A DNA stretch of 64,000 bases from an uncultured Desulfocapsaceae bacterium (GTDB taxonomy: Bacteria; Desulfobacterota; Desulfobulbia; Desulfobulbales; Desulfocapsaceae), in the NCBI GenBank assembly GCA_964623625.1, contig CAZUUJ010000014.1:110-64109 (forward strand). The letters run 5' to 3'. The notes beneath the pieces are model-generated. The model ran no database searches. It had not been told where the DNA came from and saw nothing but the letters and a program-made list of their open reading frames with translations. Positions 23,202-39,746 of this stretch are shown here, piece after piece. The position numbers and the translations under genes are program-made. Each line of letters starts with the position of its first letter. Positions within the stretch are counted from its first letter, which is position 1.

Positions 23202-24101
23202 TCAGTTCTCTTCCAACAGGTTTTTCAGTTGAGTTTTATTTTTTTCCATTTTTTGATATCCAAAGGAAATCAGCTCTCTGCTTCGGTCAAAATCGAGTGT
23301 TCCGCATATATTTCTAGGTATATCGATAACCAGATCCGGTGGATAAGCCGCAAGTTTCTGACGGGCAATGGAACCTTGCATGGCTTCAAACGACTGACTG
23401 GCTATATAGTACATTGACCAGTCGCCGAAATTCTTCTTCATATCCGTTCCTGGCAGATTGTCAAAAAACTGTTTGATCTTCTCTTTAAACGGGAAAAAAG
23501 GTGATTCGTCAACGACCTCTTTGGTCATAATATGCTCTTCGGCAGCAGGCTGTCCATTCAGGTTAACGGCAATAGTAACATCTGTATGGTCCTGAAAAGT
23601 TGGGGCAATGGGAACAGGGTTTAACACACCGCCATCGATAAGATTGGTCCCCAGGTAGTTGAAAGGAGTCAATAAAAAGGGCAGAGATATGGAAGCCCGA
23701 ATCGCATCAAAAAGGCTGCCCTTGGTTATCCACACCTCCCGTTCCTGGTCGATGTCGGAAGCCACTGCCGTAAAGGTGATCGGCAGAGTCTCAATCTGTC
23801 TTTCTCCAACAAGCTCCTTTAAGGCATCGATAATCTTCTCACCTTTTAAAAAACCTTCTTTTGCCAAAGTGAAATCCATAAAGGTCAGAATATCGAATTT
23901 GGAGATCGACAGCACCCATTGCTCAAAATCCGACAACTTCCCTGCTCCGTAAACACCGCCAACAAGGGCGCCAATCGAACTGCCGGAGATCGATTCGATA
24001 GAAAAGGAGTTTTCTTCGAGCCATTTGATAACCCCGATATGAGCCAGCCCACGGGCGCCGCCTGAGCCGAGAACAAGGGAAACGCTGTTTGCAGTTTTCA
24101 C
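23202..24101 (-). CDS. Patatin-like phospholipase
   Basis: GSGGARG oxyanion motif, GSSIG nucleophile elbow and DGG. Confidence 0.85.
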   Translation of the reverse strand: MKTANSVSLVLGSGGARGLAHIGVIKWLEENSFSIESISGSSIGALVGGVYGAGKLSDFEQWVLSISKFDILTFMDFTLAKEGFLKGEKIIDALKELVGERQIETLPITFTAVASDIDQEREVWITKGSLFDAIRASISLPFLLTPFNYLGTNLIDGGVLNPVPIAPTFQDHTDVTIAVNLNGQPAAEEHIMTKEVVDESPFFPFKEKIKQFFDNLPGTDMKKNFGDWSMYYIASQSFEAMQGSIARQKLAAYPPDLVIDIPRNICGTLDFDRSRELISFGYQKMEKNKTQLKNLLEEN

Positions 24102-24335: not shown

Positions 24336-25895
24336 ATGTCTGTCACCATGAAACGGCAACAACATCGATATTCCCTTCTCTTAATTAATCCTAAAAGAAA
24401 ACTGCGTTACCTCTGGGATTTTAAAGAGCTGTGTGAGGTCATGGGGAAAAAAACCCCGGTCCCACCTCTGTCGCTGCCCACCGTTGCCGCACTCACTCCC
24501 TCCCAATACGATATCAGGATTATCGATGAAGAGATTGAACAGATCGATTTCTCACTGAGACCCGATATCGTCGGCATCACTGCCCTTGGCAACACGGTCA
24601 AACGTGCCTATGAAATCGGTGATTTATTCAGAGAGCAGGGGGTGACCGTTGTCATGGGCGGCCCCCAGATCAGTTTTAATGTAAGCGAAAGTCTGGAGCA
24701 CGCGGACTCCATCGTCATCGGTGAGGCGGAAGGAGCCTGGCAGGACCTACTGGACGATTTTGAACAGGGTACAATCCAGCCCCGCTATAAGAGCAAAAGA
24801 CCCTGCGAATATAGAATCAGCCCCCTTCCCCGCTGGGACCTGATCCAAACCGATGCGATCATGGCCATGCCGGTCCAGGTCTCAAGGGGCTGTCCGTATA
24901 AGTGTGAATTCTGCGTCGTTCGCAATATGTTGGGCAGGCGACATCGTTATCGCAATATCGATAATGTGATCGATGAGATCAAAGCTCTACCCAAACGGCA
25001 GTTAACCTTTGCCGATGATAACCTGACCGCCGACAAAAAATACGCCCACGAGCTGATGAACAGGCTGCGCCCTTTAAAGGTTTCCTGGATGTGTCAGGCA
25101 AGCCTGGATCTGTGCGAAGACCCTGAGCTGCTGGCCAAAATGGCCCGGGCCGGCTGCACCTCCATCCTGCTCGGCATCGAATCACTGGATGATGCAGCTC
25201 TGAAAGAGGCAGGAAAACATCAGAACAACATCGAGAAATACGAAAAAGGGATACAAACCATTCACAATCATGGCATCCATGCGATCGGCTCATTTATTGT
25301 GGGCTTTGACACCGACAATCTTGATGCCTTTGACAAGATTTTTGATTTTACCCTGAAAACGGGAATTACTATGGTCACGCTCAATGTCCTGAGCGCCTAT
25401 CCCGGAACGGATCTGTATGAACGTATGAAAGCGGATGGCCGGATAAGCAATCTCGATACCGATATGCTGGGGATTTACCCGACTATGCGGTACAACCTGG
25501 TCTCCCAGAGCGATATGTTCTCGAAATTCTTTACCATATTAGAAAAGATGTATTCCTACGAGGTGACTCTGAAAAAAGCCCGCAACATTTTAGCAAACGG
25601 CAGGTTCACCCACTACAACGAAGCGGATATCGGTGCGCTCGACAAGCTGCGGTCCATGGCCTATCTGTTTCGCCAATACCTTATTACTGATAATACGGCT
25701 AAACGTGAGATGTTTCGGTTCTTATTCTCCCTCGCCCGAAAGGGCACCATTAATATGGGCAATGTGGTCGAGTATCTGCTGCTCCTGGCTTCTTTCAACG
25801 GCTACCTGGACACCACCCGTGAACATCGTGCCGAGATTCTAAGAATAATCAAAAAAAATGATCCAGGACCATTGATGGCTACAGACAAGAATTAA
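24336..25895 (+). CDS. B12-binding-domain radical SAM enzyme (1 of 3)
   Basis: N-terminal B12-binding-like domain (LLLINP...PPLSLPTVAAL...PDIVGITAL) and the cluster motif SRGCPYKCEFCVV. Confidence 0.85.
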   Translation: MSVTMKRQQHRYSLLLINPKRKLRYLWDFKELCEVMGKKTPVPPLSLPTVAALTPSQYDIRIIDEEIEQIDFSLRPDIVGITALGNTVKRAYEIGDLFREQGVTVVMGGPQISFNVSESLEHADSIVIGEAEGAWQDLLDDFEQGTIQPRYKSKRPCEYRISPLPRWDLIQTDAIMAMPVQVSRGCPYKCEFCVVRNMLGRRHRYRNIDNVIDEIKALPKRQLTFADDNLTADKKYAHELMNRLRPLKVSWMCQASLDLCEDPELLAKMARAGCTSILLGIESLDDAALKEAGKHQNNIEKYEKGIQTIHNHGIHAIGSFIVGFDTDNLDAFDKIFDFTLKTGITMVTLNVLSAYPGTDLYERMKADGRISNLDTDMLGIYPTMRYNLVSQSDMFSKFFTILEKMYSYEVTLKKARNILANGRFTHYNEADIGALDKLRSMAYLFRQYLITDNTAKREMFRFLFSLARKGTINMGNVVEYLLLLASFNGYLDTTREHRAEILRIIKKNDPGPLMATDKN

Positions 25896-26042
25896 GTCGA
25901 CAATCATTATTGATAAAAGCTATTACTCTTGATATGATGGTTTGCCTTTGCGGACAAGGGCAGTGTATTGGTTTTCAGTAAATAATACTCAGACAAATCG
26001 GCTGAGTCTCAACTATCCAATAGAGGGTGACAACTATCAGGA

Positions 26043-26351
26043 ATGAAACAGATAACCTCTGACATGGAAACGGAAATCAGAGATATGGTATTCGACTATT
26101 TCTCTGAAGAATGTGATATCGACAAGCAAGAGTTGGGTGACGACACCGACATCATTGAGGAGCTTGAGGGCGATTCATTGATGCTGCTCTCTCTTCTTGA
26201 GCTTGTCCGAAAAAAATACGACCTCACCATTGAACTGAGAACCCTGGGCCGGCACCTCATGGAAAAACCGGCCCACACCCTCGGGCAGGTCATCCTTTTA
26301 ACCAAAGCGATTATTCAACACGGTAACAATATCGTTAATGTGGAGCTTTAG
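26043..26351 (+). CDS. Acyl carrier protein (1 of 2)
   Basis: 102 aa with the phosphopantetheine attachment motif LEGDSLMLLSLLE. Confidence 0.8.
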   Translation: MKQITSDMETEIRDMVFDYFSEECDIDKQELGDDTDIIEELEGDSLMLLSLLELVRKKYDLTIELRTLGRHLMEKPAHTLGQVILLTKAIIQHGNNIVNVEL

Positions 26352-26475
26352 GATCCCACCCCAGGTTATCTCTCTCACAACTGGTTTGAAAACAACCACT
26401 GTTTTTAAACTATTGGAGTCCTTACCCATATTTACGTTTTCCTGCCCGTCCCGGTAGCCGGATATACTGCCCGCC

Positions 26476-26886
26476 GTGTTGTCAACAACCACCCACATAA
26501 CCTTTCGATCGAGACATCCCTTGATCGGTTGCGGTATTGACGCCGAAAGTATCTCAAGATTTGCTTCCTACTCCTGCGCGGTGAACCCACTGCCCATGGT
26601 CTTTTCCGAAAAGGAACTCGAACATATAAAAACCCTTGACGACCAGCCCCTTGGTTTCTGTGCCTCGTTTTGCTGTAAAGAAGCATTTTCCAAGGCTGTA
26701 GGTGTGCCAATCAATTTCACCGAATGCGAACTGTTTTACAATCCAGCCAAATCCTTTTTTCAACCGAATATCTCCTGTTCCACCGATAATCTGCCGGGGT
26801 TCAACGATTGCAGCATCCGGTTTTTTCACCCTCAAGCGGATGAGTTGGTAGCAGCCCTGTTTCTCTATGGAGCACGCGGCCAATGA
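26476..26886 (+). CDS. AcpS-type 4'-phosphopantetheinyl transferase
   Basis: Contains IGCGIDAESISRF ... FCCKEAFSKAVG. The start is uncertain (GTG 26476 or TTG 26521). Confidence 0.7.
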   Translation: MLSTTTHITFRSRHPLIGCGIDAESISRFASYSCAVNPLPMVFSEKELEHIKTLDDQPLGFCASFCCKEAFSKAVGVPINFTECELFYNPAKSFFQPNISCSTDNLPGFNDCSIRFFHPQADELVAALFLYGARGQ

Positions 26887-28370
26887 ACAATCCGGTCTGC
26901 ATTATTGGCACTGGTATTGGCGGATTATCTGCCGGAATACGCCTTGCCCAGGCAGGCAGGAAGGTGCAGATCTTTGAAAAGGAACCCCGCACAGGCGGAT
27001 ACGCCATAGCCTATACCAGAAAGGGATATCGTTTCGACCTGGCGCTTCATGTGATCCCCTCGGGTGGCTCCGGGCAGGAATTTGCGATGATGATAGACAG
27101 ACTGGGTCTAAAAAAGGATGTCCGGTTTATTCGGCTGGCGCAGGGATTTGATGTGATCCTGGGCGACTACCGATTCCAGATGCCCAATTCCTATGAACAG
27201 CTGAAACAGAAGCTTGGTGATGAATTTCCCCATGAACGCACAGGACTTGCCCATTTCTTCTACGATCTGGAAAAAAATGCGAAGAGCTACGCGCCGCTCT
27301 TCGATTATTCCGTTTCTAAATATCGGTCTCTTCCTGCATTCCTCCCCAAAATTCCACTATTCCTTAAACACTCCGCTCAAAGCGCCAGGGATTATTTATT
27401 CAACTACTTCAGCAATGACCGGCTGGTAGCCATTTTGTTTCAGCCGGCTGTTTTTATGGGTATCCCCATGGACGATTTCCCCGCAGTCAACTTCATTCTG
27501 ATGTTCTATTTGTTGATGAAAAACGGCATGTACACCATCGAAGGGGGCGGGCAGGGATTAACGGATTGCCTGAAAAAACGCTTCCTGCAGCTTGGCGGGA
27601 CAATACAGACGAAGTCGGAAATAGGGAAAATCATCATCCAATCCAGGAAAGCCACCGGAGTGGTAACCACTGACGGTTCCCGATACGATTGCTCGTCAAT
27701 TATTTGTGCTTCTAATCTGTATGACGTGGTTAACAGACTGGTGGGTCGATCACATTTTTCACAACGCTATCTGGATGTCCTCGACGGGTTGTCTTGCTCG
27801 ATCTCTGTGATGGCCCTGAACATCGGTCTGAACCGAGACCCGAAAGAACTGGGAATAGAGAGCCACATCACCATGATCTTCCCTGACACCGATATCGATA
27901 GCTGCATGAAAAAGCAGGAAAATCGAACCACCATGGATGGTTTTTCAATCACCGCCCACTGCAATTCCGACCCAGGATTCTGCCAGAGTGGAAAATACAG
28001 TCTCAGTCTGGTCGGTGGCACCGATCCAAAAAAATGGTTAGCCTTGGACGAAAAGCAATACACATCCGAGAAAAAACGTGTTATCGGAAAAACCATTGAG
28101 CAGGTAAACAGGCTGTATCCCGGGTTGAAAGAGTGTGTTCAGGTTGCAGATCTGGCAACACCGAAAACCATGTTACGATACACAGCCAACCCACTGGGGG
28201 CAATTATGGGCCTCAAGTGCACCTGCGGCTCCCATCGACAAATTATGAAGGCTGCCAATCTTCCGATAAAGAATATTATAATGGGCGGGGCATGGACAAA
28301 CCGGCTGGGTGGATTTATGCAGTCAATGAAGTCAGGGATCTTAGCAGCGGAATCATTGATGAAATCCTGA
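26883..28370 (+). CDS. FAD-dependent oxidoreductase of the phytoene-desaturase/amine-oxidase (CrtI-like) type
   Basis: Dinucleotide fold VCIIGTGIGGLSAGIRLAQAG..IFEK. 495 aa. ATGA overlap with the PPTase gene. Its stop codon lies inside MITE copy C. Confidence 0.8.
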   Translation: MNNPVCIIGTGIGGLSAGIRLAQAGRKVQIFEKEPRTGGYAIAYTRKGYRFDLALHVIPSGGSGQEFAMMIDRLGLKKDVRFIRLAQGFDVILGDYRFQMPNSYEQLKQKLGDEFPHERTGLAHFFYDLEKNAKSYAPLFDYSVSKYRSLPAFLPKIPLFLKHSAQSARDYLFNYFSNDRLVAILFQPAVFMGIPMDDFPAVNFILMFYLLMKNGMYTIEGGGQGLTDCLKKRFLQLGGTIQTKSEIGKIIIQSRKATGVVTTDGSRYDCSSIICASNLYDVVNRLVGRSHFSQRYLDVLDGLSCSISVMALNIGLNRDPKELGIESHITMIFPDTDIDSCMKKQENRTTMDGFSITAHCNSDPGFCQSGKYSLSLVGGTDPKKWLALDEKQYTSEKKRVIGKTIEQVNRLYPGLKECVQVADLATPKTMLRYTANPLGAIMGLKCTCGSHRQIMKAANLPIKNIIMGGAWTNRLGGFMQSMKSGILAAESLMKS

Positions 28371-28511
28371 ATCCGTGAGCGCCCCTTAGGAAGTGCTCTT
28401 GGAGTGCATCCGTTAGCACTGCCTCTTTCGAGGTGAAACAGTTTAGTTTAGTATTTTTATGTGGTATCAAAATAGTAAAAGTGATAACCATGATTTCTGT
28501 CACGGATTCAG
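28366..28511 (-). mobile_element. MITE-like element, family 1, copy C (inverted relative to A and B)
   Basis: CCTGAATCCGTGAGCGCCCCTTAGGAAGTGCTCTTGGAGTGCATCCG ... TTTCTGTCACGGATTCAG. Its reverse complement aligns with copies A and B. Confidence 0.8.
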
Positions 28512-28515
28512 ATAA

Positions 28516-29766
28516 ATGAGATATTCAAACTCAATTGTAATCACCGGGCTCGGACTGATGACCGGACTGGGCATGAATGTTGAAGAGTGCTGGCATGGTC
28601 TGACAACAGGGCGCTCGGTTACCGCTCCGTTCAACGCCTTTGACACGGCTGGGCTTTCCTGCGGTTATGGTGTTGAACTACCGGAAAACGCAGAGGAATT
28701 CTTTGGTGGCCGAATAAAAAAACGCAAGCGCTCCCAGATGACCAGGTCGACAAAAATGTGTGTGGTAACCGCAGAGATGGCCATAGAGGATGGCGGGCTC
28801 GACTTTGATACCTTGGACAGAGGCCGGATCGGTGTGATCATCGGTACCACCGGCACCGCCCATATTTCTGCCGAAGGACAACCGGAGAATATGCGCATCC
28901 TCAAAAATATGTCGAACTCGCCCGCCTCCTGGATATCGCTTTCTCATAAACTGTCAGGACCTTCTTTTGTTATAGGCACGGCATGTTCATCCGGTGTCTA
29001 TGCCATGGCTGCCGCTTACGGCTTGATTCGGGGTGGATTGTGCGATGTAGTGATCTGTGGCTCTATCGACTCCTCTATCAACTATGTCGATGTCGAGGGC
29101 TTCTGTAACCTGATGGCCCTGGCCGGTTCTGAACAGAAGCCGGAATCGGCTTCCAGGCCTTTTGACCGTAAACGGTCCGGTTTTGTCATAGGAGAAGGCG
29201 CAGGCCTTCTGATTCTGGAATCGGAAGAACATGCCCGAAAAAGAGGGACGGACATCTACGCCCGTACCTATTACCCCGGACTATATACCGAGTCGTACAA
29301 TATCCTCTCACCTGAACCGGACGGTGAAGGGATGGCCCGCTGCATGGAACTGGCTCTTCATGAAAGCGGGCTGCTCCCCGAAGACATAGACTATATCAAC
29401 GCCCACGGAACATCGACCCATCTCAACGATCTGTATGAGACCATGGCTATAAATAAGCTGTTCGGCAATCACGCTGCTAAACTCGCCATCTCCTCAACTA
29501 AATCGATGACCGGCCACTGTCTTGCTGGGGGGGCGGGTGTTGAAGCTGTGATCTGCTGCCTGGCGCTGCGGGACAATATCATTCCCCCGACAATTAATCT
29601 TACCGATCCGGACCCCGAGCTGGACCTTGATTATATCGCTGGTACGGCTCGCCAACAGCAACTGCGCCATGTGATGTCCAACTCCTTTGCCTTCGGCGGT
29701 CATAACGGAGTCCATATCTTTTCCCAGCCGGATCAGCCGCAACCGCAACTACAACGTCATGCATGA
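28516..29766 (+). CDS. Beta-ketoacyl-ACP synthase, KAS-I/II (FabF-like)
   Basis: Active-site Cys in GTACSSG and both His in context (NAHGTSTHLND; KSMTGHCLAG). Confidence 0.9.
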   Translation: MRYSNSIVITGLGLMTGLGMNVEECWHGLTTGRSVTAPFNAFDTAGLSCGYGVELPENAEEFFGGRIKKRKRSQMTRSTKMCVVTAEMAIEDGGLDFDTLDRGRIGVIIGTTGTAHISAEGQPENMRILKNMSNSPASWISLSHKLSGPSFVIGTACSSGVYAMAAAYGLIRGGLCDVVICGSIDSSINYVDVEGFCNLMALAGSEQKPESASRPFDRKRSGFVIGEGAGLLILESEEHARKRGTDIYARTYYPGLYTESYNILSPEPDGEGMARCMELALHESGLLPEDIDYINAHGTSTHLNDLYETMAINKLFGNHAAKLAISSTKSMTGHCLAGGAGVEAVICCLALRDNIIPPTINLTDPDPELDLDYIAGTARQQQLRHVMSNSFAFGGHNGVHIFSQPDQPQPQLQRHA

Positions 29767-30880
29767 TAATCCAGTCTATATATGTGGATCCGGTTCTTAT
29801 CTTCCCGGCGAGCCGGTTCCTTTCCAGGAGATCGATCATTTTTTAGGCGAGTTGACCAAGGCTCCCAAGAAAATCCGGAAATGGATAGCAAGAAGCCATC
29901 CGGTCATGGGAGAACTACTCGATATCGACTATGTTCATTACGGCATCGATCCGGACACCGGCAAGTTCAATGAGGACAATATTTCTCTTGCGGTGGAAGC
30001 CGCCCGAAAAGCTTTGGCTATGACCTCCATGAAGCCAGGAGATATTGACCTGATCTGTTATGGCTCGGCCCACCAGGACCAGATGCCAACCGCTTCGGTC
30101 AGAATCCAGGAAGCCCTTGGCATCGACAGCTGTGACGAGCTCTCCATTCACGCCAACTGCACTTCCGCCTACAAGGCACTCTATCTCGGTCACCAGTTGA
30201 TCAGAAGCGGCCAGAATCGCAACGCTCTTATTCTATCCGCCTCCATGTCATCTTCCGAGCTGCGGGCCGATTACTACAATCAGGAACTTGTCGACAAAGA
30301 GTCGCTTTTCCTTCGCTGGTTCCTCTCCGACGGCGGCGGCGCTGTTATTCTGTCATCGGATGGATCACGATCAAAAGGATACCGGATTGAGTCCACCTAT
30401 ATTGAGTCGGTGGGCGGCAACAGACCATCGCTGATGTACAATCATCGTCCGGCACTGTGGCTTAATCCCCGGAAGGAATATGAAGAAGGTCGTCACCACC
30501 TGCGCCAGAACTTTCGAAACGCTCTGTCGACCTCCCATTTCCAGGAAGAGGGCGGTTCCGTTTTCTTCAACGGCTTTGGGCGGATGATCAAACGAGCCCG
30601 GATTGATCCTGACACAATCCGCTGTTTCCAGATCAACCTGCCCACCAGACATATTGTTGATTCTATCAAGGAAGAGATGATCACAATCGGCATCGATCCA
30701 TCCATCTTCTATTCCAAGCTTGACCAGCTTGGCTATTGCGGCCCGCCGATGGTGTTCATCTGCCTCGATAAAATCATCCGGGAAGAATCGTTTCAACGGG
30801 GCGACAGGATCGCAAGCTTTGTCACCGAGGTATCAAAATTCATGCAAGCCGGATACATATTGCGATATGACCCTGTTTGA
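29759..30880 (+). CDS. KAS-III/FabH-like condensing enzyme (divergent)
   Basis: Thiolase-fold protein with Cys in HANCTSAY. The FabH-type Asn context is not obvious (LGYCGPP). The ATG at 29759 overlaps the upstream stop. Confidence 0.7.
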   Translation: MHDNPVYICGSGSYLPGEPVPFQEIDHFLGELTKAPKKIRKWIARSHPVMGELLDIDYVHYGIDPDTGKFNEDNISLAVEAARKALAMTSMKPGDIDLICYGSAHQDQMPTASVRIQEALGIDSCDELSIHANCTSAYKALYLGHQLIRSGQNRNALILSASMSSSELRADYYNQELVDKESLFLRWFLSDGGGAVILSSDGSRSKGYRIESTYIESVGGNRPSLMYNHRPALWLNPRKEYEEGRHHLRQNFRNALSTSHFQEEGGSVFFNGFGRMIKRARIDPDTIRCFQINLPTRHIVDSIKEEMITIGIDPSIFYSKLDQLGYCGPPMVFICLDKIIREESFQRGDRIASFVTEVSKFMQAGYILRYDPV

Positions 30881-31802
30881 GCATCAGCAAATCCAGGCAA
30901 TTCTTTTTCCCGGTATCGGTGTAAAACCGTTTGGCAAGGAACGGGATTTTTTTCTCAGGTACAGGAAAATCATCCAGCCCTACCTGGAAACAGCATCGCA
31001 GTCTGTTAATATCGATCTTGTCCAATCGCTGGAGAAGCAGGCGACGTTTGAAGAGGATCAGCCGGCCAGGGAGGTCTTTGCCTACTCCTTTTCCTGCGGT
31101 ACATTTGATGTTTTTCGCGGGCTCGGTCTCACTCCAAGCTACCTGGCCGGACACAGCCTCGGTGTTTACGCCGCTCTGGTGGCTGCCGAAGCTATCGACT
31201 TTGCTGCCGGATTACGGATCACCGCAAAAGCGCTCCGACTTGGCAAAACGTGCTGCCCCGAAAAGAAATTCGGCGTTGTGGTCATTATCGGCCTTGATCA
31301 CAAAGACGTTTTAAACATCATAACTGACCGTAACTATTCAAGTATCAATCTTGCCAATCTCAACAACAACTGCTCCGGAGTCTATGTGGGGCTCCGGCAT
31401 GAGACCGACGCACTGCTCACCATTGCCGAGCAATTGGGTGCGATCAAGACCATACGGCTACGGATCGACAGCCCCTACCACCATCCCGGGTTTATGAAAG
31501 GGATCGCCAAGGACTTTCGTTCCTTTCTTTGCGACATGAAGTGGCGCCGGCCAACCTGCCCTGTCCTTTCAGCCCTGGATCACACCATCTGCGACACTAT
31601 TGAGTCGTTGATCGATATGACCACAGCCAACATCGCCCAGCCCATTCACTGGCCCGGAGTGCTGAACAAACTCCATGCACTCGGTATCAACTCAGTCATT
31701 GAATGTGGAGTCGGGGTATCACTTAGCCAACATGCCCGATTTATCGAGCCGGCCCCCAGACATTACAATTTAAAAAACCTCAGACGACGATTGGACTATT
31801 GA
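30867..31802 (+). CDS. Acyltransferase, FabD-like (malonyl-CoA:ACP transacylase family)
   Basis: GHSLGVYAALVAA nucleophile elbow. The ATG at 30867 overlaps the previous gene by 14 nt. Confidence 0.8.
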   Translation: MTLFEHQQIQAILFPGIGVKPFGKERDFFLRYRKIIQPYLETASQSVNIDLVQSLEKQATFEEDQPAREVFAYSFSCGTFDVFRGLGLTPSYLAGHSLGVYAALVAAEAIDFAAGLRITAKALRLGKTCCPEKKFGVVVIIGLDHKDVLNIITDRNYSSINLANLNNNCSGVYVGLRHETDALLTIAEQLGAIKTIRLRIDSPYHHPGFMKGIAKDFRSFLCDMKWRRPTCPVLSALDHTICDTIESLIDMTTANIAQPIHWPGVLNKLHALGINSVIECGVGVSLSQHARFIEPAPRHYNLKNLRRRLDY

Positions 31803-32809
31803 ATCCCCAGCTTGTCATCGCCGGTTCCGGTAAAATGGCTGTCAATATCGGCCTTTTCTTTCTCCAGAAAGGATATCCGGTCCACTGGTTCTCCCATTCC
31901 GGGGAGCAATTGCAGCTCCTTGAGAAAAAAACAGCCAAAACCGCCAAACGACTGCAGAGGCTCTTTCCCGAGCAGAGTGGTTCTTTTCAAGCAAGCTTCT
32001 CCAATTACGAGACCCAGATCAAACAACCGCAAATCGTCATTGAATCGAGCCGGGAAGATCTGGAGATAAAAAAGAGTATCTTTAAAAAAATCGAGTCTAC
32101 CATCACTGACCGGACCCTGCTGCTCAGTAACTCGTCCTCCATTTTGCCGGACAGGATTCATCCGCGATGCCTGGGCTCCCATTTTTTCTACCCCGTTGAA
32201 TTGACATCATTGGTGGAACTGATTTCCTGCAAAGGTAGTAATAACCAGAAGACTCAACAGGTCCAAACCTTTCTTGAAAAAAACGGATTTGACCTAATTA
32301 GGCAGAATGAACGATCGGCATTTACTATTAATCGATTGCTGCTTCCTCTCCAGACGCTTTGCTTTGAGGCTTTAAGAGAAGGCTTCTCCCCGAATGAGGT
32401 TGAGCAGACCTCCAAGTCGGAGCTGATCGGATTCGGTCAGTTGTCGCTGATGGACTCCATCGGCCTGGATGTTGTCAGAGGTGCGGTAGACGGATATAAA
32501 GATCACAAGCCAGCCATCGTTGAACCCAATTATAAACTCCTTATCTCCTCCCTTGACCGGCTGCTTGGTATGGGGAAGCTTGGGCTAAAAAACAGAGACG
32601 GTCTACTCCATGGCCGGAAGCTGCCATGGCCTGAAACCAATAAGGACAGGAAATCATTGCATCAACTGCACAAACGATTTAAACAACTGTTGAAAGACTC
32701 TATTCATTCGGCATTACAGCAGCAAGCGATCACTAAAAAAGAACTGGCTATGTGTATGGACAGAATCTTCCATGCTTCCTTGATACCTGACGTTCTCACA
32801 AGTGAGTAA
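31799..32809 (+). CDS. 3-hydroxyacyl-CoA dehydrogenase-family NAD-binding protein
   Basis: N-terminal Rossmann fold VIAGSGKMAVNIG and the overall 3HCDH layout. TTG start overlapping the upstream stop. Confidence 0.65.
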   Translation: MNPQLVIAGSGKMAVNIGLFFLQKGYPVHWFSHSGEQLQLLEKKTAKTAKRLQRLFPEQSGSFQASFSNYETQIKQPQIVIESSREDLEIKKSIFKKIESTITDRTLLLSNSSSILPDRIHPRCLGSHFFYPVELTSLVELISCKGSNNQKTQQVQTFLEKNGFDLIRQNERSAFTINRLLLPLQTLCFEALREGFSPNEVEQTSKSELIGFGQLSLMDSIGLDVVRGAVDGYKDHKPAIVEPNYKLLISSLDRLLGMGKLGLKNRDGLLHGRKLPWPETNKDRKSLHQLHKRFKQLLKDSIHSALQQQAITKKELAMCMDRIFHASLIPDVLTSE

Positions 32810-32820
32810 TCATTTAATCT

Positions 32821-33573
32821 ATGCAGATTTTATTCGATATATATGAACGGCTCGGCACGATCACTCTGTCCAACCCTCCCCACAATAATCTGAGCCATCC
32901 GGTTTTCTGTGACAAAGAGGAGTTGCTCGATTTTTTAAGTAATCCCGCATTGACACATGTGATCCTTAGAGGCGATGGGAAGCATTTCTGCGGCGGGGCT
33001 GACATGGAATGCCTCAAGGAATTAGCCACGGAACCAAAAACACTTAAACAAGCCTTGGATCAGGGAAAAGAGCTGCTGCAGGCCCTATCAAATGCCCCTG
33101 TTCCGGTGGCCGCTCTCATCCGGGGAAGCTGCCTGGGCGGTGGTCTTGAACTGGCATTGAGCTGTCATTTCCGCTTTGCTTCCAAAAACGCGATGCTCGG
33201 TTTTCCTGAGAGCGGGCACGGATTGATGCCGGGAATGGGAGGCACCATCCTCTCAGGCAAAAACCTCACCAGATATAATCTGATAGACCTGCTGCTCAGC
33301 GGCCGGATGATCAGAGGTGAAGAGGCTCTGGAGATGGGACTGGTTGACACTGTTTACCCGTCAAAAGAAGTAGAAGAGAGGCTGCTTGTTTTTCTGCAAG
33401 GACTCACAGAGCGACATACACCGAAGCTGATCCGTTCGGTCATGCAATCAATCCATAACGGCAGCCAATTACCGACGGAAAAAGCCCTGGCCGAAGAGTC
33501 CAGACTGTTCTGCGAGCTGGTTCGCGAAAGCCGTCTTCAGCCACATCTGGACAGAGAATCCAATGACTGCTGA
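32821..33573 (+). CDS. Enoyl-CoA hydratase/isomerase (crotonase) family protein 1
   Basis: HFCGGADM and GSCLGGGLELALSCHFRFAS crotonase signatures. Confidence 0.85.
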   Translation: MQILFDIYERLGTITLSNPPHNNLSHPVFCDKEELLDFLSNPALTHVILRGDGKHFCGGADMECLKELATEPKTLKQALDQGKELLQALSNAPVPVAALIRGSCLGGGLELALSCHFRFASKNAMLGFPESGHGLMPGMGGTILSGKNLTRYNLIDLLLSGRMIRGEEALEMGLVDTVYPSKEVEERLLVFLQGLTERHTPKLIRSVMQSIHNGSQLPTEKALAEESRLFCELVRESRLQPHLDRESNDC

Positions 33574-33943
33574 TTATTCAGTCTTCTCAGTGGTGGAAAT
33601 GGTGAATATCCAGGAAATACGAAACAATCACCAGGCTGTGCTTGATTTATCCTTTTCTCCTGAAGAACAACTCGAACTTGCCAAACGGCACATCCGTTCC
33701 ACTGCCGGTGTGCTTGCACTTAAAAAAGCACTAAGTAGTTTGATCCTGAAAACTACAGGTCGCTCAGTTGATGAAAAAGAGTTGACCATTACCCGATTAA
33801 AAACTGGAAAGCCATCTCTTGTTTCCTGGCCAAGCAGCTTGTTGGCATCGAGCCTGCAAACAGAAAATCTCTTGCTCTCCATCTCCCATTCACGGACCAC
33901 CGCTTATGGGCTTGCCGTTTATCAGGAGCCTGCCGATGGCTAG
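33563..33943 (+). CDS. Second AcpS-like phosphopantetheinyl-transferase-like protein
   Basis: 126 aa with LALKKALSS.. and LSISHSRTTAYGLAV, resembling AcpS. The N-terminal metal-binding Asp appears replaced (VVEMVNI). Confidence 0.5.
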   Translation: MTADYSVFSVVEMVNIQEIRNNHQAVLDLSFSPEEQLELAKRHIRSTAGVLALKKALSSLILKTTGRSVDEKELTITRLKTGKPSLVSWPSSLLASSLQTENLLLSISHSRTTAYGLAVYQEPADG

Positions 33944-34562
33944 CCAACGTTTAACACTGAAAAGCAAAAGAGATATCTTTTATCTCGAGCTGTGCGCTCC
34001 ACCAGGCAACATAACCGATCGTCTTTTTTTTCATGAACTGACTGAAATCATCCCTGAGCTTGAAAAGCACACATCCGTTCGTGGATGTATTATTTCCGGT
34101 CAGGGCCGCCATTTCTCTTCCGGCGCTGATATTGATGAACTCAAACTCCATCTCCAGGACCCGGAGCGCCGTTTTGTGACCGAGACCCTGGAGCATTCCG
34201 CCTCTCTTTTTAACAGGTTGGCCAGTCTACCCTACCCGGTTGTCGCCGCCATCAGGGGCTGCTGTATGGGCTCAGGGCTTGAGCTGGCCCTCGCCTGCCA
34301 TTACCGAATTGCTGTAAAAAACGCGCTGTTCTCCCTGCCGGAGACGACATTCTCTCTGATGCCAGGTTGCGGCGGTACCGTGCGGTTGCCCAAACTGATC
34401 GGTGTGGCCAGGGCAATCGAGATGATCCTCTCTGGTGAACCGGTTCTGGCAGTAGAGGCCTTCAAAACCGGACTGATCAACTCCATGGTCCCAAAAAAAG
34501 AACTGCTGGCCAAGGCAGAACAACTGGTGAATATCCTGCAAACTCCTGGTTCTCGTGTATGA
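33936..34562 (+). CDS. Enoyl-CoA hydratase/isomerase (crotonase) family protein 2
   Basis: HFSSGADI and GCCMGSGLELALACHYRIAV. The ATG at 33936 overlaps the upstream stop. Confidence 0.8.
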   Translation: MASQRLTLKSKRDIFYLELCAPPGNITDRLFFHELTEIIPELEKHTSVRGCIISGQGRHFSSGADIDELKLHLQDPERRFVTETLEHSASLFNRLASLPYPVVAAIRGCCMGSGLELALACHYRIAVKNALFSLPETTFSLMPGCGGTVRLPKLIGVARAIEMILSGEPVLAVEAFKTGLINSMVPKKELLAKAEQLVNILQTPGSRV

Positions 34563-35899
34563 AAGTCTCTCTCATCAACCCGCCCCGCTCACCTCACAAT
34601 AATATCCTGAGCCATGCATCACCTGAAGCCAAGCAGTTCATCCACAGAAAACTGATCGGCCCACCTCTTGGTCTTCTCACACTGGCCGGCCTGGTAAATG
34701 ATCATGATATCAGCCTGCTGGAGATGAAGGGGGAATATGATCTGATCCCGGACAGCCCAGAACCGGCTGAAATGGTGCACAAATTTCTGCAAAGAGAGAA
34801 TCCGGATATCGTCGGGGTCACCTTTATCGCTTCTGAATTTCCCTACGGCTTGGAAATCCTTAAAACAGTCAAACAATTCAATCCTGAAATCATCACGGTA
34901 GCGGGTGGGCTACATGCTGCCCTCTGCTCAGATGATTTCATCGATCCAAGTGTCGATATCGTCTGTCCGGGACCGGGAGCTTACGTTTTTAGAGATATCG
35001 TCCAGGCTGTGGAGCGACAGACGGATTTTGATCATATCGGTGGAATTCTTATTAACCGCGACAGTCATTTGCAAGCCACTCCAGCGCCTGTATCTGTTAT
35101 CAACCCCGCTGACAACGACTTTGTTACGCCGGACAGAAGCCTGCTGAAGCGGTGGGTTTCAACCTATGTGGTCGGTAAAGCGCCGGGGCCTTCGACGTAT
35201 GTATTCACCTCGCTTGGTTGCCCGTACACCTGCTCCTTCTGTTCCATCTGGCCCCAGTTCAACAGGCGATACCTGCAGCGGGACGTCGAATCGGTGATCA
35301 GTGAACTGCAAAGCCTGGATGAGTATGATGTGATTCGTTTTTCTGATGCCAACACCCTGGTCAATCTCGACTTTGCCCATCGACTTTTTGACCGCATAGA
35401 GGAAGAATCCATCAAAAAGACCTTTATCATGGACATCCGGGTGGACACGGCTGCAAAGCATCCGGAGCTTATAAAAAAGCTGGCCCGGGGCGGCCTGAAG
35501 GTGGTGATCACCGGTTTCGAATCGATGCGCCAGGAAGAGTTGAAGAACTACAACAAGCAGCTCAACGCAGACCTGATCGACATGGCCATCGATGTTTTTC
35601 ACGACAATGACATCATGTTGCGGGGCAACTATATCGTTCCCTGCTCTTATGATGAGGAGGATTTTAATTATCTGGCCGAATACGCTGGCAGCCACCGGGT
35701 CGCCTTTGCTGGTTACACCATCCTTACACCCTTTCCCGGAACTACCTTTTACCAGGAGGTAAAGGAGGAGATCGTCGACTTTGATCTTGCCAAATACAAC
35801 ATGTTTAATGCGGTGATGAAGACCAAATTGCCCCTTGATACGTTTTACCGGAAGGTCAGTGATCTGTGGCTGTTAAGGAAGGGAGAAGATATGATCTAA
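34559..35899 (+). CDS. B12-binding-domain radical SAM enzyme (2 of 3)
   Basis: Contains MKVSLINPP..PPLGLLTLAGL..PDIVGVTFI and SLGCPYTCSFCSI. ATGA overlap with the crotonase gene. Confidence 0.85.
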   Translation: MKVSLINPPRSPHNNILSHASPEAKQFIHRKLIGPPLGLLTLAGLVNDHDISLLEMKGEYDLIPDSPEPAEMVHKFLQRENPDIVGVTFIASEFPYGLEILKTVKQFNPEIITVAGGLHAALCSDDFIDPSVDIVCPGPGAYVFRDIVQAVERQTDFDHIGGILINRDSHLQATPAPVSVINPADNDFVTPDRSLLKRWVSTYVVGKAPGPSTYVFTSLGCPYTCSFCSIWPQFNRRYLQRDVESVISELQSLDEYDVIRFSDANTLVNLDFAHRLFDRIEEESIKKTFIMDIRVDTAAKHPELIKKLARGGLKVVITGFESMRQEELKNYNKQLNADLIDMAIDVFHDNDIMLRGNYIVPCSYDEEDFNYLAEYAGSHRVAFAGYTILTPFPGTTFYQEVKEEIVDFDLAKYNMFNAVMKTKLPLDTFYRKVSDLWLLRKGEDMI

Positions 35900-36058
35900 C
35901 CATAAACAGCCACAGGTACCCCATTTTCGCGTGGTTTCTTCAGTCCGCATAGGTTGAACTATAGCACACAGAAGAAGCCATGCGAAACTGGAGCACCTGT
36001 GACAATTTATGATTTTAACAAACTTCTAAAAGTTCGAAATTACAAGGGAACAATAACA

Positions 36059-36247
36059 ATGAAAATTTTACGCTTTCTACTTCTAATCGTTCTACTCTTT
36101 ACCCTTAATGGCTGCTTTTTAACGAAGATCGTCACCGTTCCCATGCGAGTGGGTGCGGCGGTTATTTCCATCGTTCCGGTTGTCGGTAACACAGCCCATG
36201 ATGCCATTGATGAAGCCGCGCAAGTAGTGGATGAAATCCCGCTGTAA
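36059..36247 (+). CDS. Small lipoprotein, unknown function
   Basis: MKILRFLLLIVLLFTLNGC lipobox; 62 aa. Confidence 0.5.
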   Translation: MKILRFLLLIVLLFTLNGCFLTKIVTVPMRVGAAVISIVPVVGNTAHDAIDEAAQVVDEIPL

Positions 36248-36262
36248 CTGATATCCACAAGT

Positions 36263-36300
36263 AAAAAAAGGCCCTATCTCCTCTAAAAGGGGATAGGGCC
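36263..36300 (-). terminator. Rho-independent terminator (minus strand)
   Basis: On the minus strand: GGCCCTATCCCC-ttttaga-GGAGATAGGGCC followed by T7. Lies downstream of the Tim44-like gene. Confidence 0.8.
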
Positions 36301-36335
36301 TGATGGTTGTTTGATCGTGACGACAATTTGAACGG

Positions 36336-37289
36336 TTATTCTTCTTCCGCTTCAATTCCCTCGAGTTTCCAATCTTCAGTATTCACTGGTCGGGCCCAAG
36401 TCCAACGCTCGGCGAATTTCACCGGCTCTGTCATGGAACCGTCAATCAACTCACCTGACCGATCATCGACCGTGTAGTCGAGCAGACTGGCTGTAAAAAG
36501 AATAGTGAGATAATCCTCTGATCCGTCACTGCCGGCATCGACGATTTCCACATCCCTGATAGCAATGGATTCGAGTTTATTGATATGCCCTTTGCGGCGC
36601 ATCTCCTCAAAATGCTTTTCATATTCAACAGCCAGTTGTTGCCCCAGCAGATGTTCGTAAGACGACAGATCACGCCGCATCCAGCCGGCCTGCACCTGGA
36701 AGAACACATCGGCAGCCACCTCGACAAAATAGTTTTCATCGAATCCCGGATCGGTTGCCCTGATTTCCGTAAAACCGGCCTCCAATGAATGGACAGGTGA
36801 CTGCGGTTTAGGCGGAATATCGACACTGTCCATGGCGCCTGGAAATCCGGCGCCGAATGGAGACTGTCCCTCACCCGTCGGTGGAGGCCGAAAACCGGGG
36901 GATGAGTCGGACACCGGCCGTCTGCGGCTGGCCTTAAAGAGAAAATAGCCGACCAGACCAAGCAGCAAAAGCGGTAGGATACCAAACCCGGTCCCACCAG
37001 CCCCGAACAGAGATCCAAAGAGAAAAGCACCGATGGCACCACCAAGCAGACCGCCCATCAATCCCCGGCCAAAACCCTGTCGGTTTGCCTGAGTTCCTTT
37101 GTTCACAGCCTGATTCGTGCGCTGCTGCGCTTTCGGCACCGCCTGCTTCCTCGGCATGGTCCGCTTAAACATCCGTCCACCCATCCGCGACCGCGCATCA
37201 GCATATTCTGCAATAATCCCCGCTTCGATAAAACTGATAGCGAAAAGGACAAGAAACAACGGAACGAGTTTTTGCATTGCGTTATTCAT
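36336..37289 (-). CDS. Tim44-like domain membrane protein
   Basis: Signal/TM segment, Gly-rich TM region, Pro-rich linker and a C-terminal Tim44-like domain (YFVEVAADVFFQVQAGWMRRDL). Confidence 0.7.
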   Translation of the reverse strand: MNNAMQKLVPLFLVLFAISFIEAGIIAEYADARSRMGGRMFKRTMPRKQAVPKAQQRTNQAVNKGTQANRQGFGRGLMGGLLGGAIGAFLFGSLFGAGGTGFGILPLLLLGLVGYFLFKASRRRPVSDSSPGFRPPPTGEGQSPFGAGFPGAMDSVDIPPKPQSPVHSLEAGFTEIRATDPGFDENYFVEVAADVFFQVQAGWMRRDLSSYEHLLGQQLAVEYEKHFEEMRRKGHINKLESIAIRDVEIVDAGSDGSEDYLTILFTASLLDYTVDDRSGELIDGSMTEPVKFAERWTWARPVNTEDWKLEGIEAEEE

Positions 37290-37512
37290 TTTTAAAATCC
37301 CATATAAAATATTTTATGGATTCCGGCTTTCGCTGGAATGACAAAAAAGAAGTATGCTAAAATTTTTACATACATCATATTCCCAGCTTTTCTACTGTAA
37401 ATAAGAACTCTCTGCAAATAGTATCTTGGGTGTCCAACTTGCACAAAAAGATCAACACATTATAGCTAACTTTGTGTATGCCCTGTTTTCTTGTTCAACA
37501 CATCCCAGTTTG

Positions 37513-37626
37513 AAAAAAAGTTATCAGAAGTGCTCAGGTTTGATTTGCTGGGTTCAACCGCTATAGCTCATCCTATGCGGTTGAGCCCAGGGGATCAAAG
37601 ATGAGTGCTTCTGGTAACTTTTTTTT
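37513..37626 (+). other. Long imperfect hairpin (about 45 bp of helix) flanked by A7 and T8; bidirectional terminator and/or plus-strand structured RNA
   Basis: Arms 37520-37561 and 37577-37618 pair. All six non-Watson-Crick positions are T-G (G-U) on the plus strand. T8 follows at 37619-37626. Confidence 0.6.
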
Positions 37627-37945
37627 AGATTGGGGGGGCTATTGTTACTACAACCCTCATATCAGTCGTCGCCCGTACCCCATGGGGATCGGCAATATCA
37701 CACAGCAGCATATCCCCTGTTTTCGCTTCCATTGAAGCATCATCCGTCAAGAACTCCCCTTCCCCTTCCACAACCAGGATTGAGAGCTGGCCTTCAATGT
37801 CGTGGGAGTGTACCGGAAAAAGGGTGCCTGCCATCAGATTGAAATTGATGATTTTAAAAAATTCCGAATCGTGGAGGACAATCGATTTCATTCCCATCGG
37901 ATTAAATTCTCTTGTCTCGGAAAGCTTCAGTTTTTTCATTTCCAT
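37625..37945 (-). CDS. Cupin-domain protein
   Basis: 106 aa with PVHSHDIEGQLSILVVEGEGEF, a cupin metal motif. Confidence 0.7.
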   Translation of the reverse strand: MEMKKLKLSETREFNPMGMKSIVLHDSEFFKIINFNLMAGTLFPVHSHDIEGQLSILVVEGEGEFLTDDASMEAKTGDMLLCDIADPHGVRATTDMRVVVTIAPPI

Positions 37946-37983
37946 AGTGTTCCTCTTCGAACTGATTTAATTTCGGATGGTTA

Positions 37984-39396: not shown

Positions 39397-39419
39397 TGAT
39401 TGAATGTAAGACGAATGGG

Positions 39420-39683
39420 CTATTTTTTTTCTGATTCGACAAATTCGGCAATGGTGTCCACAGTCTGCAGGATATTGTGGGCATGGTTCTGATCATTGAT
39501 CACAACCGAGAACTCTCTCTGAATGCCCATCACCAGTTCCAGACCGTCGAGGGAATCAAGACCGAGTTTCTCACTTTCAAAAATCATCTCATTATTACTG
39601 ATCTCTTCCGGTGTCACATCGGAAATGTTCAACACATCGATGATCATCTTCTTGATTCGATAGTGCAGATTATCTTCGCTCAT
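39420..39683 (-). CDS. Acyl carrier protein (2 of 2)
   Basis: 87 aa with the LGLDSLDGLELVMGIQ attachment motif. Confidence 0.85.
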   Translation of the reverse strand: MSEDNLHYRIKKMIIDVLNISDVTPEEISNNEMIFESEKLGLDSLDGLELVMGIQREFSVVINDQNHAHNILQTVDTIAEFVESEKK

Positions 39684-39746
39684 ATTTCCTGGTTGGTTAA
39701 AACGATTGATTCGAGATTGAATATACAGTCGTGATTGACTTACGAT

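Follow-up and report, generated by a model that had tools for sequence, protein, structure and literature searches.

A gene cluster in a 64,000-nt window of DNA from an uncultured Desulfocapsaceae bacterium (contig CAZUUJ010000014.1; all coordinates are those of the window) is tentatively assigned here to a ring-forming pathway, related to those of the dialkylresorcinols and flexirubins, that would lead to a tailored cyclic phenolic lipid and not to a ladderane. Its main part is a plus-strand operon (24336-35899) built from parts of the type II fatty acid synthase (FAS-II) or polyketide synthase (PKS) kind that depend on an acyl carrier protein (ACP). The key enzyme of the operon (29759-30880) is a StlD/DarB-like condensing enzyme, and this likeness points to dialkylresorcinol/flexirubin chemistry. 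DarB/StlD takes a 3-ketoacyl and a 2-enoyl thioester through a Michael addition and a Claisen condensation to a carboxy-cyclohexanedione, which DarA/StlC aromatises to a resorcinol (PMC6836626). Both types of DarB substrate could be supplied by the core of the present cluster, since it encodes a ketosynthase (KS) for the 3-keto form, a 3-hydroxyacyl-thioester dehydrogenase (HCDH) with dehydratase-type crotonases of the enoyl-coenzyme A (CoA) hydratase (ECH) family for the 2-enoyl form, and no enoyl reductase was found in the cluster.

The signature condensing enzyme

The preliminary description of the window had called the key gene product a divergent enzyme of the 3-ketoacyl-ACP synthase III (KAS-III) type. 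It is KAS-III-like, but more specifically StlD/DarB-like by hidden Markov model, PDB sequence and fold. Among the NCBIfam models the StlD/DarB family NF005293 ranked first (125.1 bits, E 3.4e-36), with FabH at 75 bits (3e-21), and a 40-member profile searched against the PDB matched StlD over its full length with an E value of 1.8e-27, compared with approximately 1e-17 for FabH. The AlphaFold (AF2) model, with a predicted local distance difference test score (pLDDT) of 88.5 and a predicted TM-score (pTM) of 0.90, retrieved StlD first from the PDB (E 8e-28, TM 0.80-0.83), and FabH at 4e-22 (TMq 0.68). FabH, AbyA1 and OleA followed StlD at 1e-22 to 1e-20 and ChlB3 was also among the fold matches. 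Identity to StlD is approximately 20%, and a tblastn search of plasmids for annotated DarB relatives gave matches of at most 27% identity only.

Several points weigh against the assignment. The 125.1 bits obtained with the StlD/DarB family model miss its cutoff of 450, the DarB model NF053539 gave 96.3 bits versus a cutoff of 550, and the matches to DarH and DarG in the downstream module described below lie just under their cutoffs. In the active site, mapped by alignment and model secondary structure rather than from coordinates, Cys134 aligns with Cys126 of StlD; the position of StlD His302 is occupied by Asn293, that of the Asn in the GNTG loop by Tyr326 (motif ‘GYCGPPM’) and that of Glu154 by a Ser. 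Asn293 lies two residues past the strand formed by residues 287-291 in the model, a post-strand site at which FabH-type enzymes carry the catalytic His, and to our knowledge all KAS-III/CHS-type enzymes carry His and Asn at the two positions. The roles of the StlD residues are presumed, in part from PDB entry titles (5gk2, H302A mutant). Across all lineages, 40-45 sequences show no variation at Asn293 and Tyr326, nor at H131, N133, H246, H247, H298 and E306. Because the His, Asn and Glu154 positions are replaced, the chemistry may differ from that of DarB, and acyl transfer or another condensation is possible. No ORF scanned in 23202-44637 matched a DarA/StlC-named model, an absence that is provisional as the library was not verified to hold one. 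HCDH and the ECH enzymes are of the CoA type and their action on ACP thioesters is assumed, the roles proposed below for the radical S-adenosylmethionine (rSAM) and FAD enzymes are putative, and all carriers found are uncultured, with the product known from none. The signature family is thus best described as StlD-like in predicted fold and nearest ancestry, and as falling outside StlD/DarB by threshold and aligned active site.

Organization of the plus-strand operon

Twelve plus-strand ORFs were present at 24336-35899, exactly where they had first been placed, and the family assignments proposed for all twelve were reproduced with Pfam and NCBIfam models, together with motifs found by inspection of the translations (the small AcpS-like protein weakly, E 2.8e-5). 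When gene ends and starts were compared, seven junctions overlapped (-4, -8, -14, -4, -11, -8 and -4 nt), each at the junction named in the preliminary description, and the remaining four were gapped, three by 124-147 nt and one by 11 nt. The exact overlaps support its proposal of a single, tightly coupled, ACP-dependent FAS-II/PKS-like operon. Independent gene calls were available from JGI for the metagenome contig Ga0115649_1000473 (112.8 kb), which contains the window, and their starts agreed with the ORF starts for the twelve genes with the sole exception of the AcpS-type ORF (26476-26886). The parts of the plus-strand unit are as follows.

24336-25895, plus strand: rSAM1, B12-binding radical SAM enzyme with DUF4070 tail, CPYKCEFC (Pfam B12-binding, Radical_SAM, DUF4070)
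26043-26351, plus strand: ACP1, dedicated divergent acyl carrier protein, DSL motif, Ser45 (PP-binding 2.5e-8)
26476-26886, plus strand: PPT1, AcpS-type phosphopantetheinyl transferase (PPTase), GID and KEAFSKA motifs (Pfam ACPS 5.5e-10)
26883-28370, plus strand: CrtI/CRTISO-family FAD oxidoreductase, GxGxxG (Amino_oxidase 1.3e-24; crtI_fam 126 bits, cutoff 238)
28516-29766, plus strand: FabF-type elongating KS (fabF model 402 bits; PDB FabF 305 bits)
29759-30880, plus strand: StlD/DarB-like thiolase-fold condensing enzyme, signature gene of the family (model, PDB profile, fold)
30867-31802, plus strand: FabD-like acyltransferase (AT), GHSLG (fabD 126 bits, cutoff 261; Acyl_transf_1 weak)
31799-32809, plus strand: HCDH, 3-hydroxyacyl-thioester dehydrogenase, HAD family (3HCDH_N 1.3e-23; PDB HAD about 1e-16)
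32821-33573, plus strand: ECH1, crotonase of hydratase/dehydratase type, GGGLELAL and GFPES, both catalytic Glu (ECH_1 5e-37)
33563-33943, plus strand: PPT2, small AcpS-superfamily protein (NCBIfam AcpS models only, E 2.8e-5 and 1.4e-4)
33936-34562, plus strand: ECH2, C-terminally short crotonase of 208 aa, both catalytic Glu (ECH_1 3.6e-39)
34559-35899, plus strand: rSAM2, B12-binding radical SAM enzyme, HpnR/BchE-like, CPYTCSFC (Pfam/NCBIfam)
35954-36247, plus strand: DUF6726 small lipoprotein (PF20487 9e-27), conserved beside the operon in related locus L004
36269-36301, plus strand: terminator-like hairpin with a 14-bp stem between the convergent units, the strongest of the region

The strongest hairpin of the region lies directly 3’ of the DUF6726 gene, and the plus-strand transcription unit therefore probably ends there. 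A promoter and terminator scan of the region gave total counts not above those of shuffled controls, with only this hairpin standing out. Rfam found nothing over threshold in the whole window except a tRNA-Arg at 49784-49860 (minus strand); a cobalamin riboswitch was not found in the window despite the three B12-dependent enzymes of the cluster.

The preliminary description had proposed private PPTases. PPT1, whose gene overlaps that of the flavoenzyme by 4 nt, carries AcpS motifs, including those required for activation of ACP1. PPT2 is a weak match without the catalytic Asp/Glu motifs. The proposal is thus supported for one private PPTase or more. A C-terminal SISHS is conserved in PPT2, approximately half of the related loci have a small ORF in this slot between both ECH genes, and the copy in L023 meets the PF22624 cutoff. 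At the position of PPT1, JGI called a 109-aa minus-strand ORF (26554-26883) with no family match, which looks like an annotation error.

Catalytic residues are intact in the FabF-like KS (Cys-His-His in GTACSSG, NAHGTST and MTGHCL), in HCDH (SNSSS, HFFYP-His and LVEL-Glu) and in the crotonases. ECH2 aligns to residues 1-200 of crotonases of approximately 260 aa, the C-terminal 50 or so residues being missing, and its homologues are approximately 200-216 aa in most other lineages. The FabD-like AT presumably loads malonyl onto ACP1. The ACP matched PDB entries only weakly (Iga10 and amxACP, E about 1e-3); its identity is 59-65% in Myxococcota, Methylomirabilia and two unassigned JGI-metagenome loci (L007, L053-L056), and approximately 40-48% in Bacteroidales and Spirochaetota loci. 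For rSAM1 the best NCBIfam models were HpnJ, BchE and P-methylase-like, all far under cutoff. For rSAM2, only weak PDB matches were obtained (9ccb and TokK, about 1e-10).

Neither FabG, FabZ nor FabI was found within 24336-35899 by the Pfam/NCBIfam scan, and no FabZ/FabA domain in 24336-43637. With HCDH and two ECH enzymes present, this bears out the earlier view that CoA-type enzymes process the β-carbon in their place. Such enzymes would also suit a β-oxidation-like operon that breaks down some unusual acyl or alicyclic compound, since β-oxidation enzymes are what HCDH, ECH1 and ECH2 most resemble. That reading is scarcely credible: two ACPs, the PPTase(s), a FabD-like AT and an elongating FabF are translationally coupled with HCDH and the ECH genes, which argues for biosynthesis, and no acyl-CoA ligase, acyl-CoA dehydrogenase or true thiolase accompanies them.

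The succession of AT, ACP, KS, thiolase-fold enzyme and two consecutive crotonases also resembles the outline of a β-branching cassette of the PksCFGHI/CurD-F type, which would place an alkyl branch on a 3-ketoacyl-ACP, and ECH1 matches the PKS crotonase model PRK07110 with 87 bits. However, models of 3-hydroxy-3-methylglutaryl (HMG)-CoA synthase gave 23-35 bits versus cutoffs of 244-360 and StlD is the best fold match of the thiolase-fold enzyme. The KS retains its active-site Cys (GTACSSG), both crotonases keep the two hydratase Glu residues and no PKS assembly line lies nearby. A cassette of this type is highly improbable and was rejected on the HMG-CoA synthase scores and the KS Cys.

Four further candidate systems were rejected. 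A polyunsaturated fatty acid (PUFA) synthase was set aside on the PfaA model (83 and 25 bits, cutoff 1010) and for want of a multidomain PKS ORF, as was heterocyst glycolipid synthesis on the latter ground; an Ole pathway, as OleA ranked under StlD and FabH in the fold search; and an aryl polyene (APE) pathway in the window, which has no KS/chain-length factor (CLF) pair, ketoreductase (KR), dehydratase (DH), LolA or MMPL gene. The cluster had been described as an orphan, and it keeps that status because clear orthology and synteny with any characterised pathway were not seen; the literature searches made here gave nothing on this gene set, and its product is uncharacterised.

Distribution and conserved core of the cluster family

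Related loci were taken as those containing the signature KS, and the window proteins were compared with them by tblastn. There are 54 such loci, many cut by contig ends. The same genes recur together in these 54 loci from several phyla, so the arrangement is non-random, far beyond chance. Over 1,200 homologues of the signature KS were found at E <= 1e-10, with identity holding at 55-67% across phyla. All 54 loci come from metagenomes or metagenome-assembled genomes (MAGs), the latter accounting for 49 of the 49 genome loci retrieved with the signature KS. The genome loci belong to Desulfocapsaceae, Polyangia/Myxococcota, Fibrobacterota, many Bacteroidales/Prolixibacteraceae, Neomarinimicrobiota and one Alphaproteobacteria bin; further named homologues of the signature KS come from Calditrichaceae, Chitinivibrionales and Thermodesulfobacteriota, and additional contexts from a Methylomirabilia MAG, a Spirochaetota-type contig and unassigned metagenome contigs. 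Closest to the window are the Desulfocapsaceae MAGs L003 and L004, whose signature KS is 94% and 81% identical, respectively; L004 retains both the operon and the downstream module. D. psychrophila is not among the 49 genome loci, although the scan was pattern-based and this absence is not proven.

Homologues of ECH2 occur in 50 of the 54 loci, of ECH1 in 49, of HCDH in 45 and of the FabF-like KS in 43. ACP1 and the AT are found in 31 each, followed by rSAM1 (29), rSAM2 (24), rSAM3 of the downstream module (20) and the CrtI-like flavoenzyme (6). In 37 loci the core comes with a 4HBT thioesterase, which the window cluster lacks. Two gene orders recur. The order of the window type (ACP, AcpS, [flavoenzyme], KS, StlD-like KS, AT, HCDH, ECH1, [PPT2], ECH2, rSAM2) is found in Desulfocapsaceae, Myxococcota, Methylomirabilia and others. 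In the Bacteroidales type the order is ECH1, ECH2, StlD-like KS, rSAM1, HCDH, Haem_bd, KS, ACP and AT, with rSAM3 and rSAM2 convergent. In eleven Bacteroidales loci, L023 among them, the cluster is reduced to a minimal variant: genes for rSAM, ACP and AT are missing within 10 kb, and a divergent COMT-type O-methyltransferase is there instead. From the locus counts and this variant, the universal core is ECH, ECH, the StlD-like KS, HCDH and KS, usually with a thioesterase.

CrtI-like and rSAM enzymes had been regarded as defining parts of the cluster. The comparison argues otherwise: they appear to be lineage-specific tailoring add-ons, with one Bacteroidales variant lacking any rSAM. Of these add-ons rSAM2 seems the most widely kept; it is better conserved across phyla (53-62% identity) than rSAM1 or rSAM3, and in loci L007, L055 and L056 it is the sole rSAM. 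From its homologues, rSAM1 is likewise taken to be an accessory member of the family. The flavoenzyme belongs to a discrete family that reaches down to approximately 36% identity, beyond which homologues fall below 30%. Its gene has the same position in L053 and L054 (Methylomirabilia), and tblastn did not find it in the Bacteroidales and Myxococcota loci. In a Hydrogenedentes MAG (L052, 2398-11488) a member of this family with 42% identity closes an APE-like type II cluster of KS, ACP, SPASM-rSAM, 4HBT, KS/CLF, ACP, KS and KS genes, from which the StlD-like KS is absent. Its place at the end of that cluster suggests, by analogy, that the flavoenzyme could act on carrier-bound acyl or polyene intermediates.

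A small Haem_bd protein (PF14376) is encoded between HCDH and the FabF-like KS in rSAM-bearing clusters of the Bacteroidales type (24 loci, for example L046 13760-14161 and L058 15236-15628), and not in the window; electron transfer to the rSAM enzymes is a possible role.

Downstream module and accessory genes

The limits first given to the operon, 24336-35899, proved too narrow, as related genes continue at 37625-43637, and the functional cluster is predicted to reach about 43637. Both of the B12-binding rSAM enzymes said to frame the operon lie within its interval; the functional unit as a whole holds three. The downstream genes are listed here.

37625-37945, minus strand: Cupin_2 small protein, downstream end of the minus-strand module (JGI Pfam label)
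37984-39396, minus strand: rSAM3, B12-binding radical SAM enzyme of the TsrM/BzaD-like branch, CIHRCIYC (TIGR04072 319.9 bits, cutoff 360)
39420-39683, minus strand: ACP2, second acyl carrier protein, DSL motif (NCBIfam ACP models E 1e-11; PDB ACPs)
39747-40754, minus strand: BtrH-like ACP-dependent acyltransferase, DarH-like (BtrH_N, DUF4872; NCBIfam DarH_acyl 292.9 bits, cutoff 300)
40828-41292, minus strand: DarG-family small protein, dialkylresorcinol/flexirubin accessory (NF053536 49.4 bits, cutoff 70)
41555-42343, plus strand: ABC transporter ATPase, DrrA-like, divergent from the DarG-like gene (TIGR01188 264 bits, cutoff 312)
42309-43637, plus strand: ABC-2 type permease (DrrB/ABC-2 models)

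Several of these genes adjoin the core elsewhere. The BtrH-like gene lies again beside it in L004, L057 and L059, and an ABC-2 pair also flanks it in L057, where the permease is 25% identical to that of the window. In the Spirochaetota locus L059 the trio of DarG-like (45% identity), BtrH-like (53%) and ACP2 (43%) genes stands beside the core, and in L057 partly so. The Cupin_2 protein is 95-96% identical in L003 and L004, and only its position suggests that it belongs to the cluster.

Like the core, rSAM3 recurs: it adjoins the core in 20 of the 54 loci, and shares a contig with KS homologues in at least seven cases. After TIGR04072, its second-best NCBIfam model is BzaD (185 bits), and its closest solved relative is TsrM (PDB, 107.7 bits, E 4.5e-30). 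TsrM and BzaD are methylases of aromatic carbon.

Genes suggestive of aromatic products also accompany the core in other lineages. COMT-type O-methyltransferases (Methyltransf_2 with Dimerisation) occur within 10 kb of the core in 14 loci from four lineages (for example L023 6593-7699 on the minus strand, L053 8514-9563 and L059 19345-20385), and are adjacent to it in several, such as L023 and L053. Peptidase U32-family genes flank the core in two unrelated loci (L054 7469-9347, with a UbiE-like methyltransferase, and L057 14756-15853); the U32 family includes the O2-independent hydroxylases UbiU and UbiV. Together with the TsrM/BzaD-like rSAM3, the COMT-type and U32/UbiE-like genes are hints that the product is phenolic or enolic. 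In Prolixibacteraceae (L046) the core lies inside a flexirubin-type cluster with LolA2_flexi (198 bits, cutoff 125) and LolB2_flexi (74 bits, cutoff 60), as well as KS/CLF, a FabA-like DH, 4HBT, a polysaccharide deacetylase and GT2-DUF2062, and LolA2 homologues are found in 14 loci.

These accessory genes bear on a second explanation, in which no ring is formed. The product would be a linear modified fatty acyl chain serving as a membrane-lipid modification of anaerobes, with an unsaturated or hydroxy acyl-ACP made by KS, HCDH and ECH, the StlD-like enzyme in starter loading or acyl transfer, the rSAM enzymes placing methyl branches on unactivated carbons and the flavoenzyme adding or removing a double bond. 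KAS-III-like proteins with altered triads are known acyltransferases, ChlB3 is one of the fold matches, and the catalytic His and Asn of the signature enzyme are replaced. Furthermore, most characterised class-B rSAM enzymes are methylases, rSAM2 is nearest to the lipid C-methylase HpnR, and the 55-67% identity of the signature KS across phyla would suit a membrane function. However, a linear chain leaves unexplained the strict pairing of the signature gene with two crotonases and a dehydrogenase without an enoyl reductase, as it does the recurrent phenol-type O-methyltransferases, the DarG/DarH-like genes and the flexirubin LolA2/LolB2, and a variant of the core exists without any rSAM. We regard this explanation as possible but unlikely.

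Other genes of the window were noted near the cluster or for their family. A patatin-like phospholipase (23202-24101, minus strand; RssA-like, 198 bits, cutoff 272) is the divergent neighbour of rSAM1 and keeps this position in the Desulfocapsaceae MAG L004 (88% identity). A Tim44-like domain protein with a Gly-rich membrane N-terminus (36336-37289, minus strand) lies between the two modules and is kept in L003 and L004 (81-91%). A protein of the SAM hydrolase/fluorinase family (58680-59504, plus strand; (R)-SAM hydrolase model 183 bits, cutoff 350) is positionally unrelated to the cluster.

Relation to ladderane biosynthesis

The preliminary description had stated that FAS-II parts, rSAM enzymes and a CrtI-like gene were discussed for anammox ladderane lipids. 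This is correct (Rattray 2009, PMC2649909), and biochemical resolution is still lacking there; the link to the present cluster is confined to a common parts list. Under a ladderane or anaerobic-PUFA explanation, the cluster would be a homologue of the anammox clusters, in which a KS, a dehydratase and the CrtI-like enzyme build a polyunsaturated acyl-ACP that B12-binding rSAM enzymes rearrange or cyclise. The common parts are an ACP, AcpS, FabF, a phytoene-desaturase-like protein and B12-binding rSAM enzymes (PMC4790861; bioRxiv 2026.05.19.726425). The model TIGR04072 (‘rSAM_ladder_B12’, lipid biosynthesis B12/rSAM) gives rSAM3 its 319.9 bits and rSAM1 and rSAM2 69 and 21 bits, and amxACP is among the weak PDB matches of ACP1. 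In addition, antiSMASH ‘ladderane’ clusters have been reported in Desulfobacterota, Fibrobacterota and Myxococcota (PMC9902471).

The anammox clusters kuste3603-3608 and kuste2802-2805 contain FabZ and a mutated FabF (FabF-mut, which pairs with FabF2 as a heterodimer) and have no ECH, HCDH or KAS-III (PMC4790861). In the present cluster the amxFabZ and the mutated FabF/CLF partner are absent, a single FabF carries an intact Cys-His-His, and the ECH, HCDH and KAS-III-like genes are additional. The FabF is no closer to anammox FabF2 (9s5h_B, 265 bits) than to FabF of B. subtilis (305 bits), and none of the top homologues of the flavoenzyme or rSAM3 that are named has an anammox name, most matches being nameless. 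The TIGR04072 score is under its cutoff, rSAM3 lies outside 24336-35899, and other lineages do without the flavoenzyme and two of the rSAM enzymes. Homology to the anammox clusters thus appears quite improbable. No orthology to individual anammox proteins emerged from the FabF comparison, the match of ACP1 to amxACP (E 4e-3) or the names of the top homologues. The present cluster family may itself be one source of the ‘ladderane’ calls.

Proposed pathway

On the tentatively preferred dialkylresorcinol/flexirubin-related route, the AT and KS would lengthen an acyl chain on ACP1 to a 3-ketoacyl thioester, and HCDH and the ECH enzymes would interconvert 3-keto, (S)-3-hydroxy and 2-enoyl forms to give both substrate types of a DarB-type enzyme. 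Precedents for CoA-type enzymes acting on carrier thioesters are RpfF and the ECH1/ECH2 enzymes of PKS systems. The StlD-like enzyme would hold one chain on Cys134 and join the second to it, closing a ring of the carboxy-cyclohexanedione or resorcinol type, or would at minimum form a head-to-head condensation product. As tailoring particular to the lineage, the CrtI-family flavoenzyme of the present Desulfocapsaceae genome would dehydrogenate this product by aromatisation or desaturation; it could be a ring aromatase, or a desaturase or saturase of an ACP-bound intermediate. The three B12-binding rSAM enzymes could C-methylate the product, rSAM3 resembling arene methylases. The BtrH-like enzyme would then move an acyl group bound to ACP2 onto the product, and the ABC-2 pump would export it to the envelope.

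A wider proposal extends this scheme to an oxygen-independent polyketide-type route in at least eight phyla of uncultured, apparently anaerobic bacteria. A ring would be made from two fatty-acyl thioesters by a thiolase-fold enzyme whose Cys-Asn-Tyr active site would be unprecedented, and then modified by TsrM/BzaD-like B12-binding rSAM enzymes that C-methylate aromatic carbon and, in some lineages, by U32-family (UbiU/V-like) hydroxylation and O-methylation, giving a ring-methylated phenolic or quinol-like lipid. This proposal is distinctly doubtful; if true, the envelope would contain a redox-active or antioxidant lipid of a new class, and the family would possibly be a source of antiSMASH ‘ladderane’ mislabels outside anammox.

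The cluster defines a conserved, uncharacterised family carried by Desulfocapsaceae, Bacteroidales, Myxococcota, Fibrobacterota, Spirochaetota, Methylomirabilia and Marinimicrobia. Since the family is conserved and confined to metagenomes and MAGs, its product is probably a lipid or pigment that is abundant in anoxic habitats but has gone unseen. The question is shifted from ladderanes to testable DarB-type chemistry, and a minimal seven-gene core suited to heterologous expression (in Bacteroidales 4HBT, ECH1, PPT2-like, ECH2, StlD-like KS, HCDH and KS) is now defined. The enzymology is probably new: with the acyl-Cys kept and Asn and Tyr at the His and Asn sites, the signature enzyme holds promise of new thiolase-fold chemistry. 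A 2026 review names ladderanes and the jawsamycin (Jaw5) product as the sole keto-acyl (non-isoprenoid) lipids for which rSAM modification has so far been proposed (PMC13459092), and the cluster adds up to three B12-binding rSAM candidates with a defined genetic context.

Comparison with known systems

The anammox clusters and the D. psychrophila loci (Rattray et al. 2009) share with the present cluster a private ACP, AcpS, FabF, a phytoene-desaturase-like flavoprotein and B12-binding rSAM enzymes. None of these systems is biochemically characterised, and the proximity of rSAM3 to TIGR04072 is a further point of likeness. They differ in that the StlD-like KS, HCDH and two ECH genes are extra here, and in that the present family is widespread in non-anammox phyla. 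The trans-AT PKS β-branching cassettes (AcpK/PksC/F/G/H/I) share the outline of AT, ACP, KS, thiolase-fold enzyme and paired crotonases; unlike them, the present cluster has no HMG synthase and no Cys-to-Ser KS, both of its crotonases are of the hydratase type and HCDH is present.

Closer likeness is found in the flexirubin/APE clusters of Bacteroidota, through the Bacteroidales relatives that hold the core together with LolA2/LolB2, KS/CLF, ACP, FabA-like, 4HBT and GT2-DUF2062 genes. Canonical flexirubin clusters use DarA/DarB, and we know of none with B12-binding rSAM enzymes. The window itself differs in having no APE genes, as model scans found no KS/CLF, FabG-type KR, FabZ/FabA DH, LolA, MMPL or GT2-DUF2062.

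From the DarAB(C)/StlCDE systems (Pseudomonas, Photorhabdus and Chitinophaga, and BrtCD of cyanobacteria) the window cluster differs by its own supply module of KS, AT, HCDH and ECH and by up to three B12-binding rSAM enzymes and a CrtI-family flavoenzyme. The family has so far been found only in uncultured genomes and metagenome contigs, and its named carrier lineages are inferred to be mostly anaerobes. These systems nevertheless contain the nearest characterised relative of the signature enzyme, and with them the cluster shares a dedicated ACP and neighbours able to supply 3-keto and 2-enoyl thioesters. The Azoarcus dar cluster has a set of DarG-like, BtrH-like, ACP and ABC-transporter genes (PMC3949708), and genes resembling these four kinds, with scores just under curated thresholds or with no such threshold, lie near the core in the window.

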